Made by a program: the position numbers and the translations under genes. From the NCBI GenBank assembly GCA_963789265.1, contig CAWBKB010000007.1, positions 384,001-448,000 of the forward strand: 64,000 bases of DNA, written 5' to 3'. Shown here one piece after another: positions 24,531-31,885 of this stretch (the first letter of the stretch is position 1; each line of letters opens with the position of its first letter). The notes under the pieces are model-generated. The model was not told where the DNA came from. It was given only the letters and a program-made list of their open reading frames with translations, and ran no database searches. Source of the DNA: an uncultured delta proteobacterium. GTDB lineage: Bacteria > Desulfobacterota > Desulfomonilia > Desulfomonilales > Desulfomonilaceae.

Positions 24531-24820
24531 GGTGGGACAGGCTTCCAGCCTGTCTATTGTGAATGACAGGCAGGATGCCTGTCCTATTATCAATTCTTCA
24601 CCCTCTTACCAGTAGGACAGGCTTCCAGCCTGTCACTTTCTTGGTGGGACAGGCTTCCAGCCTGTCTATTGGGAATGACAGGCAGGATGCCTGTCCTACT
24701 ATCAATTCTTCACCCTCTTACCAGTAGGACAGGCTTCCAGCCTGTCACTTTCTTGGTGCGACAGGCTTCCAGCCTGTCTATTGGGAATGACGGGCAGGAT
24801 GCCTGTCCTACTATCAATTC
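24531..24820. repeat. REP cluster with a 112-bp tandem period downstream of the RAYT gene
   Basis: Repeated GT(G/A)GGACAGGCTTCCAGCCTGTC and GACAGGCAGGATGCCTGTCCTAC; CCCTCTTACC at 24601 and 24713. Confidence 0.9.
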
Positions 24821-24821
24821 C

Positions 24822-25271
24822 TCACATCCGACGTCCTGCCCAGCGATAATCCTCAATCTCCGGCCACCGCTTCACAGGATTTCCCAGAATGTATTCTGTC
24901 TTCTGAAGCAACTCCGCTTCATCCCTCACAATGCGGTCAAAGTACTCGTCCTGCCAGACTGGCACGGCCCTTGTCCGAGTTTTTCTCAACGCGTTGGCGG
25001 TAAAAGATTTCCACGAATGGACGATCTGTTGCAAAGAATGCGTGTCAAAGGGGGATACGAGTACATGCACATGATCATCCATGACAACATAGGCAAGGAG
25101 CTCGTAGCGCTTGCCATCGAAATGTCTTATCGCGTCGGCCACCAAGGTCCTTTCCTCGGGATCGAGAACGGGTTGGGCCTTTCCAAGACGCCAGGTGACA
25201 AAGTAAAAGGAGCTCTCCATTCGCCAATGCGGGAGTTTCCGCCGATATGTGATTAAACGGGGTGTTTTCAA
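24822..25271 (-). CDS. REP-associated tyrosine transposase (RAYT, Y1 HUH family)
   Basis: YRRKLPHW, YFVTWRL, YVVMDDHVH (HUH), SWKSFTA, WQDEYFDRIVRD, YILGNPV; REPs on both sides; TTG start after GAGGT. Confidence 0.88.
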   Translation of the reverse strand: MKTPRLITYRRKLPHWRMESSFYFVTWRLGKAQPVLDPEERTLVADAIRHFDGKRYELLAYVVMDDHVHVLVSPFDTHSLQQIVHSWKSFTANALRKTRTRAVPVWQDEYFDRIVRDEAELLQKTEYILGNPVKRWPEIEDYRWAGRRM

Positions 25272-28289: not shown

Positions 28290-29304
28290 CTCTTCCTCCC
28301 AATCCAAAAAGAATCGAAAAAAGATGCCCTAAGGCAGTTAAACGCTGTACTCGTTTCGGCAGCCTCAACGCTCCCCCGAATTCCCCGCCGGCGGGGGATT
28401 CAGAAAAGCGCTAATTACGGCTTCTAGTCCGGTGAATCTCGAGTTCACCATCTGGTACAGATCTTCTGATTTCACATGTTTGTAACACCGGCCTAGCCTC
28501 GGTGTCAAGAAAAATTTGTATGATGGGGAATGGGGATGCGGCGGGAGCGGCGCTGACTAAGCGGTAGAAGGGTCGGGTACTTGTCGGCAGTGAGGTCAAC
28601 GACGTTAGAGTACATTTGCGACGAAGTGCCTGAAATTTTTATTTCATTAGAATTTGTATTATAGACTTATGAAAGGTATTTGCAAGTGTGTTTTGAAGCT
28701 GGCGTAGGATGTGGTGAGTCACACGGCAAGTGGGATGAACCGTCCCGCGGAACGCGGGATCAGCGTCCTGGGGATCTCCCGGCTTCTCGGCTGCATTTTT
28801 CGCGACCGATGCAGTTTCCTCCGCTTTCGCAGGGATCACCACGTTCAAGAGGACTGCCATTCGTCACCCCGGACCCCGATCCGGGGATGGTAGGGGCGAC
28901 CGCCGGTCGCCCAGGGCGAATGCCATTCGCCCCTACAGCCACATCCGCGGGCATGACGACAGGCAGGATGCCTGTCCCACCGACAAGGTGGGGATATGGT
29001 GGTTGGACAGGCTTCCAGCCTGTCATTTCCAACGCCGGCAGGGACGCCGGCGCTATCCCGCGGGACGCGGGATAGGACCGGCCTCCGTGCCGGTCTTCCT
29101 CGTTCCCAGGCCCGCGAGACGCGCATAGGCGTTAAGCGTCTAGCAGGACAACGTGCGCGGGAATGACGAAGAATCCGCAGATTGCGCAGATGCAAAAAGT
29201 CTGGATTCCCGCATGAGGGGGGATGGCGCGTTTTATATCTGTGTCATCTGCGTAATCTGTGGATGAGCCGGCTTCAGCGGCCCCGTATATGACCAGGGGG
29301 GCGT

Positions 29305-29389
29305 GTCATTGCGAGGAGCGGTGCGACGAAGCAATCTCCTGTACCGCTTCCGTTACCTTGTGAGATTGCTTCGCTGCGCTCGCAATCAC
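29305..29389. repeat. GTCATTGCGAG-type palindromic doublet downstream of GIY-YIG gene 1
   Basis: GTCATTGCGAGGAGCGGTGCGACGAAGCAATCTC ... GAGATTGCTTCGCTGCGCTCGCAATCAC. Confidence 0.85.
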
Positions 29390-29400
29390 AGGGTGATGTC

Positions 29401-29688
29401 CTACAAGTATTCATATAGATCCCGCCATTCGGGATTCATTGCTTCGATGAGGTCGATTTTTTTCTGGCGAGAGCCTGCCTTTATCTGTTTCTCACGGGCA
29501 ATGGCTGCGTGCACGTCATCTGTGACCTCATAGAACACCAGCTTGGAAACGTTGTACCGGTGAGTAAAACCCGGTACCAGCTTCTCTCGGTGCTGCCAGA
29601 CGCGTCTCCTGAGGTCGCGGGACACCCCCATGTACAGAACCGTGTTACTGCGATTGGTGAGGATGTTGACGTGGTATTGTCGATACAC
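29401..29688 (-). CDS. GIY-YIG nuclease family protein (small, stand-alone) 1
   Basis: YHVNILTN..VLYMGVSRDLRRRVWQH..GFTHRYNVSKLVFYE..AIAREKQIK..NPEWRDL. Confidence 0.88.
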   Translation of the reverse strand: MYRQYHVNILTNRSNTVLYMGVSRDLRRRVWQHREKLVPGFTHRYNVSKLVFYEVTDDVHAAIAREKQIKAGSRQKKIDLIEAMNPEWRDLYEYL

Positions 29689-29703
29689 GTTCTATAACTT
29701 TCC

Positions 29704-29829
29704 GAGATTGCTTCGCTTCGCTCGCAATGACAGGTGCCGATAATGTCATTGCGAGGAGTGAAACGACGAAGCAATCTCCTGTACCGATGTCACAACTTTC
29801 CGAGATTGCTTCGCTTCGCTCGCAATGAC
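29704..29829. repeat. Three GTCATTGCGAG-type palindromic units upstream of GIY-YIG gene 1
   Basis: GAGATTGCTTCGCTTCGCTCGCAATGAC at 29704 and 29802; opposite unit at 29745. Confidence 0.85.
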
Positions 29830-29937
29830 AGTAGGAGCAACCGGTGCGGAGGCCTGTCCTACCGCCGCGATGGTAGCGCCGGCGTCCCTGCCGGCGGATG
29901 ATGGGATGTGGCGGCACCCGAACGGCGGCCTTTGCCC

Positions 29938-30750: not shown

Positions 30751-30898
30751 GGACCTTCTCGCTATTGAATATCAAGATAATACTTTTGTAGTTTGAAATT
30801 ATCAAGTTCATCACAATATGTCAAGTTGTTGTTCAGGATTCGCTGTCCGTTTGCCCCAATGCATGTCCCCCGCCCCGAGGACAACGCGACCAGGCCGA

Positions 30899-31053
30899 GT
30901 CGTCATTCTCGCGCACGCGGGAATCCAGGCATTGAATCTCAGTGGGACCGGCATCTTGCCGGTCGTCGTCATTCCCGCGTACGCGGGAATCCAGACTGGA
31001 CCCCGGATCTAGTCCGGGGTGACGACGTCATCCTCGCGCACTCGAGAATCCAG
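30899..31053. repeat. Downstream part of the 30-bp direct-repeat array (3 units)
   Basis: GTCGTCATT(C/T)-type repeats at 30899, 30965 and 31024; 36-bp and 29-bp intervals. Confidence 0.85.
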
Positions 31054-31054
31054 G

Positions 31055-31348
31055 CTATAACGTAATGACTTCGTACAGGTCTTTCCAATCCGGGTTCCTT
31101 TGCTCTATCAGATCCAACTTCCAAGCCCTTCTCCATTTCTTGATCTGTTTTTCCCTTGCTATTGCACTTTCGGCGGTATCATGAACTTCAAAATAGACGA
31201 GCCTGTTCACACCATACTTCATTGTAAAGCCTTCTACTAACTTTTGCTTGTGCTGCCAGGTCCTCTGAATCAAATTGGATGTCACCCCTGTATACAAGGT
31301 TCCGTTACGTTGACTCGCCAAGATGTAGACATGAAATTGCTTACTCAC
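31055..31348 (-). CDS. GIY-YIG nuclease family protein (small, stand-alone) 2
   Basis: FHVYILASQRNGTLYTGVTSNLIQRTWQHK..GFTMKYGVNRLVYFE..AIAREKQIKKWRRAWK..NPDWKDL; GAGG RBS then GTG. Confidence 0.9.
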   Translation of the reverse strand: MSKQFHVYILASQRNGTLYTGVTSNLIQRTWQHKQKLVEGFTMKYGVNRLVYFEVHDTAESAIAREKQIKKWRRAWKLDLIEQRNPDWKDLYEVITL

Positions 31349-31387
31349 TTCAACCTCATCTGGACCCCGGATCAGGTCCGGGGTGAC

Positions 31388-31808
31388 GGCGTCATTCTCG
31401 CGTACGCGAGAATCCAGACGAGGAGGGATCGTGCTAGAACCCAGGGGTCCTGAGTCGTCATTCTCGCGCACGCGGGAATCCAGACTCTGAATGACAGGCA
31501 GGATGCCTATCCCACTAAAGTCGTCATTCCCGCGGCACGCGGGAATCCAGACGATCTTGGTTGCCTCATCGGTACGCAGATCACTCGTCGTCATTCCCGC
31601 GCACGCGGGAATCCAGAACCGGCTGCCTCGATCATACTGACCGTGAAACCGGAGGTCGTCATTCCCGCGCACGCGGGAATCCAGGCCTAATGCTGTTACA
31701 CCTGGCACGACGTGAGGGAGTTGTCATTCTCGCGCACGCGGGAATCCACGCTGGACCCCGGATCTAGTCCGGGGTGACGGCATCATTACCTCGCACTCGG
31801 GAATCCAT
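31388..31808. repeat. CRISPR-like array: 7 palindromic 30-bp direct repeats with unique 35-38-bp spacers; no cas genes
   Basis: Consensus GTCGTCATTCCCGCGCACGCGGGAATCCAG at 31388, 31454, 31520, 31587, 31655, 31720 and 31779 (degenerate); spacers 36, 36, 36, 38, 35 and 29 bp. Confidence 0.88.
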
Positions 31809-31885
31809 TGTGGGGGCACCTCTCCCGGGTGCCCGCAAGACGGCAGACACTATCCCGCGTCGCGCGGGACTGCCCCTACTCGTCC

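Follow-up and report, generated by a model that had tools for sequence, protein, structure and literature searches.

What has written an array of regularly spaced hairpin repeats and unrelated inserts around a small nuclease gene? The locus lies in a 64-kb stretch of DNA (called here, at its full length, the window), and the original prediction took it for a Cas-less, CRISPR-like system formed by the array and the nuclease together. Our analysis assigns the gene and its hairpins to a nuclease-hairpin pairing that is already in the literature. It suggests, on balance, that the array was written by the adaptation module of a CRISPR system located elsewhere in the same genome.

The array extends from position 30899 to 31808 and holds ten copies of the repeat. 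All lie in one orientation (+ strand), as predicted, with start-to-start distances of 66, 59, 364, 66, 67, 66, 68, 65 and 59 nt. Six of the ten match the predicted 30-mer with at most 3 mismatches; 100 shuffles gave an expectation of 0. The length of 30 nt proposed for the repeat has to be corrected to 32 nt: every one of the eight full copies has AC, GC or AA at positions 31 and 32, where it copies the native junction with a second hairpin, H2. Since these two positions copy a junction with the next module, the length of the unit is set by the process and not by the hairpin. The full units are R1 (30899-30930), R2 (30965-30996, with the native H2 junction), R4 (31388-31419), R5 (31454-31485), R6 (31520-31552, with one extra loop base), R7 (31587-31618), R8 (31655-31686) and R9 (31720-31751, again with the native H2 junction). 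Two degenerate copies complete the series: R3' (31024-31053), which abuts the stop codon of the nuclease gene, and R10' (31779-31808). The first 30 nt of R7 and R8 are identical and fit the published NTS consensus CGTCATTCCCGCGMAVGCGGGAATCYRG exactly, R4 and R5 differ at 3 positions, and R9 is the most diverged full unit. H2 (CTGGACCCCGG..CCGGGGTGAC) is a second SRM-like hairpin in inverse orientation; its three predicted copies were located at 30996-31023, at 31360-31387 (11 nt from the start of the nuclease gene) and at 31751-31778. The array is heterogeneous in its repeats and is split both by the gene and by other hairpins.

Overlapping short-read contigs from two soil metagenome runs, which may derive from the source sample, span the array piecewise, so the array is not a misassembly. 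Two single-base indels of the assembly, at 31534 (the extra base of R6) and 31617, are missing from the short-read contigs, and in one metagenome contig without base 31617 R7 and S7 measure exactly 32 + 35 nt. A metagenome joint that skips 497 nt was discounted, being anchored by 27 letters within a repeat. Among the public runs that contain the sequence, none of RNA was listed.

The gene enclosed by the array (31055-31348, - strand, GTG start) encodes the predicted GIY-YIG protein of 97 aa, with a Pfam match (PF01541, E 6.6e-17) over residues 5 to 78 and no further domain. A search of NCBIfam and of solved structures gave the nuclease no specific name; the one match, a weak one, was to a UPF0213 protein. 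The protein is identical to its N. gonorrhoeae homologue at 57 of 89 residues (64%, E 3e-43). This 94-aa homologue is the only one in the gonococcal chromosome record, and 7 copies of the NTS lie no more than 1.5 kb from it. Its length, its flanks and the fact that it is the sole homologue suggest that it is the SsnA orthologue. Judged by likeness to it, the 97-aa protein belongs to the SsnA clade (CDD cd10448). The gene is flanked by R3' and H2 on one side and by H2 and R4 on the other. It is near certain from the sequence that this is an SsnA-type site-specific single-stranded-DNA nuclease among its cognate NTS/SRM-type hairpins, a class defined by a biochemical trait (cleavage of single-stranded DNA upstream of the hairpin, with double-stranded DNA and RNA left uncut). 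By analogy with the Neisseria enzyme, it would bind the hairpin in single-stranded DNA and cut just upstream. The pairing of Ssn nucleases with NTS (SRM) hairpins has been published (Chenal et al. 2025, Nat Commun 16:2388, PMC11893778); that article places the cut about 3 nt upstream of the NTS and describes in vitro programming of Ssn by split hairpins on two oligonucleotides. The proposal that nuclease and repeat form one system was right in that the two belong together, but the pairing is a known one. Real as the ten repeats and the gene are, they do not amount to a new Cas-less system.

The hairpin is widespread in this genome. A blastn-short search located the repeat at 155 loci, which are spread over 7 contigs, are mostly solitary and divide into 76 of + and 79 of - orientation; 141 of them lie outside the three arrays. 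H2 has 90 copies. All five GIY-YIG paralogues have hairpin modules on both sides, and the genome holds three distinct nuclease-hairpin pairings. Y1_Tnp gave six matches, which are associated with a different, M-type hairpin; none adjoins the Ssn-type repeat, and the match in the window (24888-25172) has M-type hairpins around it. The other two arrays are mini-arrays, in each of which a further copy of the hairpin holds one insert, with periods of 66 and 65 nt. Exact duplication covers 34 nt at one and 33 nt at the other, and in both the copies on the two sides of the insert are of the same rare variant of the repeat. The flanks do not repeat the insert, so the mini-arrays are not tandem duplications. 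Both lie at least 68 kb from any ssn gene. The original prediction had offered two roles for the nuclease, a guided nuclease or a RAYT-like mobilising enzyme; nothing was found in support of either, and the two mini-arrays lie far from any GIY-YIG gene. Genome-wide, all eight close direct repeat pairs have periods of 65-68 nt, leaving out two 59-nt R-H2-R' composites, and a pair search that allowed periods of 45-75 nt again placed its matches in this genome (7 of 7) at 65-68 nt.

With a 32-nt unit, the inserts of the window measure 34, 34, 34, 34, 36 and 33 nt and those of the mini-arrays 34 and 33 nt (if the duplication in the mini-array on contig C4 is truly 34 nt, its insert is 32 nt). The inserts are mutually unrelated, with a mean best identity of 0.41, equal to that of shuffled sequence. 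Six unique intervals of fixed length had been claimed for the window. Four are indeed unique, with lengths of 33-36 nt: S4 (31420-31453, 34 nt), whose sole genome match is itself, S6 (31553-31586, 34 nt), S7 (31619-31654) and S8 (31687-31719, 33 nt). The remaining two are pieces of the dispersed M-type hairpin module, namely S1 (30931-30964, 34 nt; 130 genome blast hits, the best 26 nt at 100%) and S5 (31486-31519, 34 nt; an internal piece with 134 hits, the best 28 nt at 96%). S1 ends exactly where the M-type module natively abuts the repeat, and it may be the native flank of R2 rather than a captured piece.

One insert has an identified source. The last 35 nt of S7 (31620-31654) are a perfect copy, 35/35, of C5:828811-828845 in the same genome (the copy may be read as 35-36 nt). 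No hairpin adjoins the source, which lies upstream of a weak DprA-like gene within a competence gene cluster. The PAM of type I-C systems is TTC; the source is flanked by GTG upstream and GGC downstream, with no TTC in either orientation (n=1). For the other inserts no source was identified, and a blastn search of 31418-31719 against phage and plasmid records matched the repeat only and no insert. The predicted measured capture process is upheld: the inserts are unlike each other, a distant site is copied exactly in one of them, and the periods are held within 65-68 nt.

A candidate for such a process is present on contig C1 of the same genome, as a type I-C cas locus with an array of 27 repeats of 32 nt. 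Its 26 spacers measure 33 (8), 34 (11), 35 (5) and 36 nt (2), with a period of 65-68 nt. Intact ORFs for cas1, cas2 and cas4 adjoin this array; Cas1c scores 501.9 bits (cut-off 385), and Cas2 and Cas4 score 60.2 and 116.9 bits, both above their cut-offs. The label Cas-less accordingly holds for the window, where no Cas1 was found in 64 kb, but not for the genome, which has Cas1c, Cas2 and Cas4. This Cas1, the only one in the assembled genome (about 4% is unassembled), adjoins the I-C repeat, which differs from the hairpin. The geometry is shared: the duplication is 32 nt in the window and 33/34 nt in the mini-arrays against an I-C repeat of 32 nt, and inserts and I-C spacers both measure 33-36 nt with a mode of 34 nt. 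The sequences are much less alike. Hairpin and I-C repeat agree at 18-19 of 32 positions, the hairpin lies in a different register, and the I-C 3' handle is missing from it. Sequence likeness to the I-C repeat was dropped as a cause of targeting, since 2187 other 32-mers of the genome score at least 18 against that repeat and none of them holds an insert.

We consider it somewhat probable that the resident I-C Cas1-Cas2 took Ssn hairpins for CRISPR repeats and placed spacers there off-target, so that a neo-CRISPR arose naturally; among possible writers, the Cas1c-Cas2-Cas4 module explains the array most economically. It would have used the hairpins repeatedly as surrogate CRISPR repeats, making staggered cuts about 32 bp apart that start at the G of GTCGTCAT and inserting a prespacer of 33-36 bp, after which gap repair would have doubled the 32-bp unit. 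Around the ssn gene this would have yielded six inserts, and at two further copies of the hairpin a single insert each. Integration would have been non-polar: S7, read as the youngest event, sits internally between R7 and R8, whose first 30 nt are identical, and still matches its chromosomal source perfectly. No leader could be defined for the array. Geometry and duplication are observed, as are the intact adaptation genes and the source of one insert; that Cas1-Cas2 catalysed the integration events we infer. The array is probably a by-product without crRNA function, given that its repeat does not carry the I-C 3' handle. We counted against Cas1-Cas2 as the writer that the source of S7 has no PAM, that two inserts are host hairpin modules and S1 is perhaps a native flank, that R4 and R5 differ at 3 positions and identity to the I-C repeat is low, and that the inserts match no phage or plasmid.

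Other genomes with such hairpins bear on this reading in both directions. Counted in its favour is that the split between duplication and insert tracks the resident CRISPR system. Of 17 genomes in which hairpin pairs of 60-62 nt occur, 6 have type I-E Cas1e with an adjoining 61-nt array, against 1 of 20 controls (Fisher one-sided p = 0.026). The splits found alongside I-E are 28+33, 27+33 and 29+31 nt, a pair in G088 splits 35+31 where the resident array is 36+30, and the source genome has 32-34 + 32-35. An earlier comparison by strong Pfam Cas1 matches only, in which 1 of 4 arrays matched in geometry, is superseded, as the Pfam model scores type I-E Cas1 weakly. The other 11 of the 17 genomes have no I-E or I-F Cas1, and 8 of these 11 have no Cas1 whatever; G084, G099 and G102 have Cas1 of other types. 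In G089 the pair has a period of 68 nt, against 71-74 nt for the arrays, the pair in G103 splits 33+28 and fits no CRISPR type, the pair in G086 is a plain tandem duplication, and G001, the closest relative with Cas1c, has no such pair. Across many phyla, 78 isolated non-tandem pairs have periods of 45-75 nt with peaks at 53 and 60-62 nt, and a period of 65-68 nt occurs in 11 of 106 hairpin pairs sampled from other genomes. Multi-copy hairpin arrays elsewhere are mostly plain tandem duplications with periods of 59-73 nt and spacers 0.8-1.0 alike.

A process tied to the hairpin and independent of Cas proteins is the most serious of the other explanations; we judge it unlikely. After Ssn cleavage upstream of the hairpin, template switching or error-prone repair could have made the units, or some other ruler could be at work, and the match to the I-C period would then be coincidental. 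In many phyla it is common for hairpin pairs to enclose unlike inserts, at many periods, most genomes with 60-62-nt pairs lack the I-E or I-F Cas1, and the G103 split, the missing PAM and the two inserts made of host modules are as such a process would have it. The chance of landing at 65-68 nt by accident is about 0.1 per lineage (11/106), and the published Ssn cut falls near the 5' edge of the unit (PMC11893778). It is harder to see why the source genome should have only periods of 65-68 nt when 53 and 60-62 nt are commonest elsewhere, why Cas1e should be enriched where pairs of 61 nt occur, how a 35+31 pair comes to lie in a genome with a 36+30 array, and how the mini-arrays arose so far from any ssn gene. 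Moreover, GIY-YIG nucleases are not, to our knowledge, able to join DNA, and we know of no mechanism by which the duplication would be measured at 32 nt and the insert at 34 nt as well.

Tandem duplication of a 66-nt segment followed by divergence, or a chance juxtaposition of modules as in the Neisseria and E. coli mosaics, would make the locus an ordinary hairpin cluster. Most multi-copy hairpin arrays in other genomes are of this kind, and the intergenic site occupied by the array is a hot spot, with different repeat modules in each species. For the source genome a tandem origin was rejected and is largely refuted by inserts no more alike than shuffled sequence, by the perfect copy of a unique distant site in S7 and by the mini-array flanks; with eight periods all within 4 nt, an ordinary cluster is very improbable. 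We give equally little credence to a genuine orphan CRISPR array, which a CRISPR-Cas system with NTS-like repeats would have left behind or would serve in trans and which would yield functional crRNAs, in spite of the regular repeat-spacer geometry, the four unique spacers and a stem sequence that resembles type I-E repeats. Its repeat would be a 155-copy dispersed element in both orientations, mostly solitary; its copies are heterogeneous, the gene and other hairpins interrupt it, and the genome's sole Cas1 adjoins a different repeat. At the orthologous site, moreover, four same-genus species have nothing or another filling. When genomes of the same genus were searched for the pre-integration state, the sites orthologous to the array and to the two mini-arrays held other modules or nothing, never a single hairpin. 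For a strain comparison, metagenomes were scanned for the conserved flank, which gave no match, and a scan for pairs of the window's repeat variant found one 62-nt tandem duplication. Least credible of all is a guided system in which SsnA cuts a single-stranded array into hairpin-plus-spacer units that direct the nuclease. Cleavage just upstream of hairpins and split-hairpin programming in vitro (PMC11893778) would suit it, as would the position of the array beside the ssn gene and the match of S7 upstream of a competence-cluster gene; two of the eight inserts are far from any ssn gene, just one has a known match, and the hairpin arrays of other genomes are mostly trivial duplications. Hardly more credible is a working hybrid, with Cas1-Cas2 writing spacers beside Ssn hairpins and SsnA-cut units of hairpin plus about 34 nt guiding or modulating cleavage of matching single-stranded DNA. 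Incoming transforming DNA is an example of such a target.

The locus resembles several known systems. It shares with Ssn/SRM systems a single-domain GIY-YIG protein of about 95 aa, a hairpin-flanked gene and hundreds of dispersed intergenic copies; in the text of the article that describes these systems the words 'spacer', 'NIME' and 'tandem' have 0 occurrences and CRISPR appears as an analogy only (PMC11893778). The hairpins adjoining the gene here differ from those so described in forming an array of fixed period with unrelated inserts. Non-canonical spacer integration by Cas1-Cas2 reportedly yields neo-CRISPR loci, a finding ascribed to Nivala, Shipman and Church in 2018 (Nat Microbiol 3:310) and cited in PMC6698737 and bioRxiv 10.1101/148544. 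Our array is like such loci in several ways: a stretch as long as a repeat is duplicated on either side of an insert as long as a spacer, the site is apart from the array beside the cas genes, the genome holds an adaptation module, and an insert was drawn from the host's own DNA. It is unlike them in being natural and attributed to I-C, and in that as many as five or six inserts have gathered at one site. Its target, moreover, is not random DNA but a repeat that functions in another system, and other CRISPR types have seemingly struck this target family in other phyla. Orphan and mini CRISPR arrays are said by Shmakov et al. 2020 to have repeats identical or very similar to the cas-adjacent repeats of their host. 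Such arrays, which the review PMC8616872 also mentions, are likewise short, without adjacent cas genes and accompanied by a complete system elsewhere in the genome, whereas the repeat here, at 18-19/32 identity to the resident one, comes from a dispersed hairpin family. Regular geometry and unrelated spacers are canonical CRISPR traits that the array shows; its repeat is neither shared with the cas locus nor confined to the array. Among the findings that, according to the prediction, would refute it were broad spacing of the same repeat elsewhere in the genome and a cas locus using this exact repeat. The repeat is indeed widely dispersed; the existing cas locus uses another, and for that reason the array is not an ordinary orphan CRISPR either. 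In REP/BIME elements with their RAYT (Y1) genes, and in the dRS3 mosaics of Neisseria, recurrent modules are combined at variable spacing. Dispersed extragenic palindromes cluster there too, and a dedicated nuclease gene is flanked by them; four unique inserts and a fixed period set our array apart, and the Y1 genes of this genome go with the M-type hairpin, none being flanked by the Ssn-type repeat. BIME and RAYT are also discussed in PMC11893778.

The nuclease-hairpin pairing has already been published and is ordinary; the array matters if Cas1-Cas2 did write it. Few natural cases are known to us in which a CRISPR integrase has written into non-CRISPR DNA, and most of them are single scars. 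Here a dispersed host hairpin with a dedicated nuclease would have served as a recurrent surrogate repeat and grown into a multi-spacer array, and CRISPR-type footprints would be found at the same hairpin family in other phyla. More tentatively, and with doubt prevailing, NTS/SRM hairpins may be a general natural cradle at which the adaptation modules of several CRISPR types seed arrays, and hence repeat families. CRISPR-finding software would call such loci orphan arrays. The working hybrid, were it true, would be a DNA-level analogue of crRNA biogenesis. If Cas1-Cas2 integration at these hairpins is the correct reading, they would provide a natural substrate on which to test the birth of CRISPR arrays and repeat families and the minimal target features of the integrases.

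Ten GC-rich palindromic repeat copies (R1 to R10') lie in one orientation around a GIY-YIG gene at 30899-31808, in agreement with the original prediction. Their start-to-start spacing is 66, 59, 364, 66, 67, 66, 68, 65 and 59 nt; six copies have at most three mismatches to the 30-mer, a level reached by no copy in shuffled sequence. The 364-nt gap contains a minus-strand ORF of 97 codons with a GTG start (31055-31348; Pfam GIY-YIG, E 6.6e-17), and the two 59-nt intervals are due to the presence of H2, another dispersed hairpin module, found here in three copies (30996-31023, 31360-31387 and 31751-31778). The repeat unit, first given as 30 bp, is in fact 32 nt, since the 30-mer is followed in each of the eight full copies by AC, GC or AA, two bases that reproduce the native H2 junction. 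Overlapping exact pieces of the array occur in contigs from two soil metagenome runs, so the array is not an assembly artefact, with the proviso that these runs may themselves be the source of the assembly. One base each at 31534 and 31617 is absent from these short-read metagenome contigs, and without these bases the array periods are 66, 66, 66, 67 and 65 nt; the extra bases reflect either errors of assembly at repeats or differences between strains.

The text of Chenal et al. 2025 (PMC11893778) defines the Neisseria NTS hairpin motif as CGTCATTCCCGCGMAVGCGGGAATCYRG, describes SsnA as a 94-aa GIY-YIG protein that binds single-stranded DNA at the NTS hairpin and cleaves upstream of the hairpin, and reports such motifs in the flanks of 71% of homologues and on both sides of 42%. 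Copies R7 and R8 fit the NTS consensus exactly. The window protein is identical at 57 of 89 positions (E 3e-43) to the sole homologue on an N. gonorrhoeae chromosome record, which has 94 aa and seven NTS copies within 1.5 kb. On the strength of this fit and likeness, the gene plus its hairpins very probably form an Ssn/SRM pair. Nuclease and repeat were thus rightly placed together, but the pairing is a published one and not new.

The genome under study has five Ssn-like genes, each hairpin-flanked on both sides, with three flank types (repeat with H2, an H2 variant, and the H3 module). The second such gene, on the minus strand at 29401-29688, encodes 95 aa, is 54% identical to the first and lies 1.4 kb away; it has H3 (TGTCATTGCGAGCGAAGCGAAGCAATC type) on both sides (29250-29400 and 29690-29900), as do two further paralogues, while the fifth has H2 variant flanks. 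There seem, therefore, to be three nuclease-hairpin pairings within one genome. Genome copy numbers are 90 for H2, 212 for H3 and 127 for M, a further hairpin module. Several repeat copies (30905-30924, 31460-31479 and 31726-31745) contain TTCTCGCG...CGCGGGAA, which gives a T-G pair on the plus strand and an A-C mismatch on the minus strand, and R4 bears a compensating change. This pattern hints that reading of the window hairpin is confined to one strand, as has been reported for NTS. A Y1 (IS200/IS605 or RAYT-like) transposase match, one of six in the genome, is found at 24888-25172 (minus strand) amid M-type hairpins (GACAGGCAGGATGCCTGTCCC; near 24560, 24673, 25296 and 26086), and M could be a REP family that has a RAYT of its own.

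The repeat is dispersed over the genome: blastn-short gives 155 loci that do not overlap and measure 20 nt or more, spread over seven contigs with 76 and 79 on the two strands, most of them solitary within composite elements of several hairpin modules. Among these loci, the only same-strand neighbours less than 100 nt apart are eight at 65-68 nt and two 59-nt repeat-H2-repeat composites. A direct-pair search permitting periods of 45-75 nt found seven pairs, every one at 65-68 nt. Of the eight 65-68-nt pairs, the window contains six; the remaining two, at C4:156237-156332 and C7:124588-124682, are mini-arrays with one insert each and lie at a distance from all GIY-YIG genes. With a 32-nt unit the insert lengths are 34, 34, 34, 34, 36, 33, 34 and 33 nt, and likeness among inserts is 0.41, against 0.41 for shuffled sequence.

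Not all six intervals in the window are unique, as had been supposed. Uniqueness holds for S4, S6 and S8, and for both mini-array inserts, but comparison with the host genome identified S1 and S5 as fragments of the dispersed M module and S7 as a perfect 35-nt copy of C5:828811-828845, a source without an adjoining hairpin. S7 is flanked by R7 and R8, identical over their first 30 nt, and the arrangement is exactly 32 + 35 in one metagenome contig. The mini-array duplications are exact (34 and 33 nt), the two repeat copies within each mini-array being one and the same rare variant, and in neither mini-array is the insert sequence repeated in the flanks. Array and mini-array units are, as their sequences read, insertions with target duplication. 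Tandem duplication as their origin was rejected, because the duplications flank unrelated inserts; the unlikeness of the inserts, the copying of S7 from C5 and the shared 65-68-nt period bear out the measured capture or insertion process proposed from the fixed insert lengths. The S7 source is found 31 nt upstream of an ORF with weak likeness to DprA (Pfam 24 bits, under the cut-off of 29.6) that clusters with prepilin peptidase and ComEC, competence-type genes (C5:826000-833100; locus L002, 4000-11100). A modulating effect of Ssn nucleases on natural transformation has been reported; as this is one case only, the proximity may be chance.

The sole Cas1 of the genome (C1:322311-323180) is a type I-C Cas1c by NCBIfam (501.9 bits, cut-off 385). 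Adjoining Cas2 and Cas4 are above their cut-offs, and the Cas3, Cas7, Cas8c and Cas5c matches are weaker. The array on C1, next to these cas genes, has 27 identical 32-nt repeats, which in the crRNA sense start with GTCG and end with GAAAC, and spacers of 33 (8), 34 (11), 35 (5) and 36 nt (2), for a period of 65-68 nt. The hairpin arrays share with it the 32-nt unit, insert range, mode of 34 and period, as well as the first four and last two unit bases. Solitary I-C repeat copies are present at C1:1048189-1048220 and C1:318533-318564 (28/32 and 27/32 identical), one 1.4 kb past the far end of the array and the other 730 kb off, and short I-E-like palindromes (GGTTCACCCCCACGTGCGTGGGGA) occur near that far end.

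The array occupies a yggT / acetyl-CoA hydrolase-GNAT intergenic site (30751-31885) whose content differs in four same-genus species (L005-L008). The site is nearly empty in G004, holds ~270-290 nt of other hairpin modules in G005 and G006, and in G001 carries a different ~1-kb insert, which includes a small ORF with CCGCAGAG-rich repeats on either side; the array is therefore lineage-specific. None of the family's 69 other genomes has a 65-68-nt pair, one of them having a 62-nt pair, and G001 has Cas1c yet no such pair.

Across all species representatives, at least 122 loci in many phyla have two such hairpins 45-75 nt apart; multi-copy arrays among them are mostly plain tandem duplications. 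Removal of look-alike spacers left 106 pairs, with periods spread over 45-75 nt and peaks at 53 and 60-61; 11 have a period of 65-68 nt. The 60-61-nt class is the commonest (24 of the 106; NTS-type, unrelated inserts, e.g. L055, L084, L086, L089, L111 and L121), and in L089 an unrelated 63-nt unit takes the place of one unit in a series of tandem 61-nt duplicates. Tandem duplication accounts for 8 of 86 isolated pairs but not for the other 78. Of 17 genomes holding 60-62-nt pairs, 6 have type I-E Cas1e, in every case with an adjoining 61-nt array; the other 11 have no I-E or I-F Cas1, eight lacking any Cas1 match. Controls with pairs at other periods had Cas1e above cut-off in 1 of 15, and five further controls, screened with the Pfam model only, had no I-E-like match (6 of 17 against 1 of 20, Fisher one-sided p = 0.026, for two sets screened with different models, with genomes of unknown completeness and related genomes that are not independent). 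In G086, one of the six, the pair is a plain tandem duplication. The split into duplication and insert mostly tracks the resident system: 28+33, 27+33 and 29+31 with I-E, 35+31 beside a 36+30 array (seen for G088 and for locus L111), and 32-34 + 32-35 in the genome studied here. Exceptions are G103 (33+28) and G101 (~30+31); 61-nt pairs also accompany other Cas1 types (G084, G099, G102), and G089 has a 68-nt pair with arrays of 71-74.

No enzyme other than Cas1-Cas2 is known to flank an insert of fixed length with a duplication of fixed length. Given this and the geometry match, we judge it somewhat more likely than not that the arrays arose through off-target integration of spacers by the resident I-C Cas1-Cas2, the best available mechanism, on circumstantial evidence. 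The I-C module would integrate spacers off-target at Ssn hairpins, akin to the "neo-CRISPR" reaction as described for Cas1-Cas2 (PMC6698737; bioRxiv 10.1101/148544), and leader-independent integration would fit the internal place of the youngest insert, S7. In its favour we count the quantitative match, three independent loci (chance of 65-68 nt ~0.1 each, from 11/106, and jointly ~0.001 by our arithmetic), the self-derived S7 and the cross-genome Cas1e trend. Against it are the lack of a PAM at the sole traceable source (S7), the modest and unexceptional likeness of the hairpin to the I-C repeat, the possibility that S1 is native flank, and the lack of a matching Cas1 in most genomes with 61-nt pairs. 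The main rival, a Cas-independent, hairpin-linked process that made the units, appears to us unlikely, though a serious contender. Nothing points to transcription or use of the array.

Off-target integration has been documented in the laboratory, with a few natural hints besides; what would differ here is a natural multi-spacer array whose writer is taken to be a type I-C module. Relative to Ssn/SRM systems the nuclease-hairpin pairing is already known, novelty being judged beside the text of PMC11893778, whose supplementary tables might list family members or hairpin clusters. If the Cas1-Cas2 reading is true, the new element would be I-C spacers seeded on a hairpin that is cognate to a nuclease of another system, together with signs of the same hairpin family being hit in other phyla.
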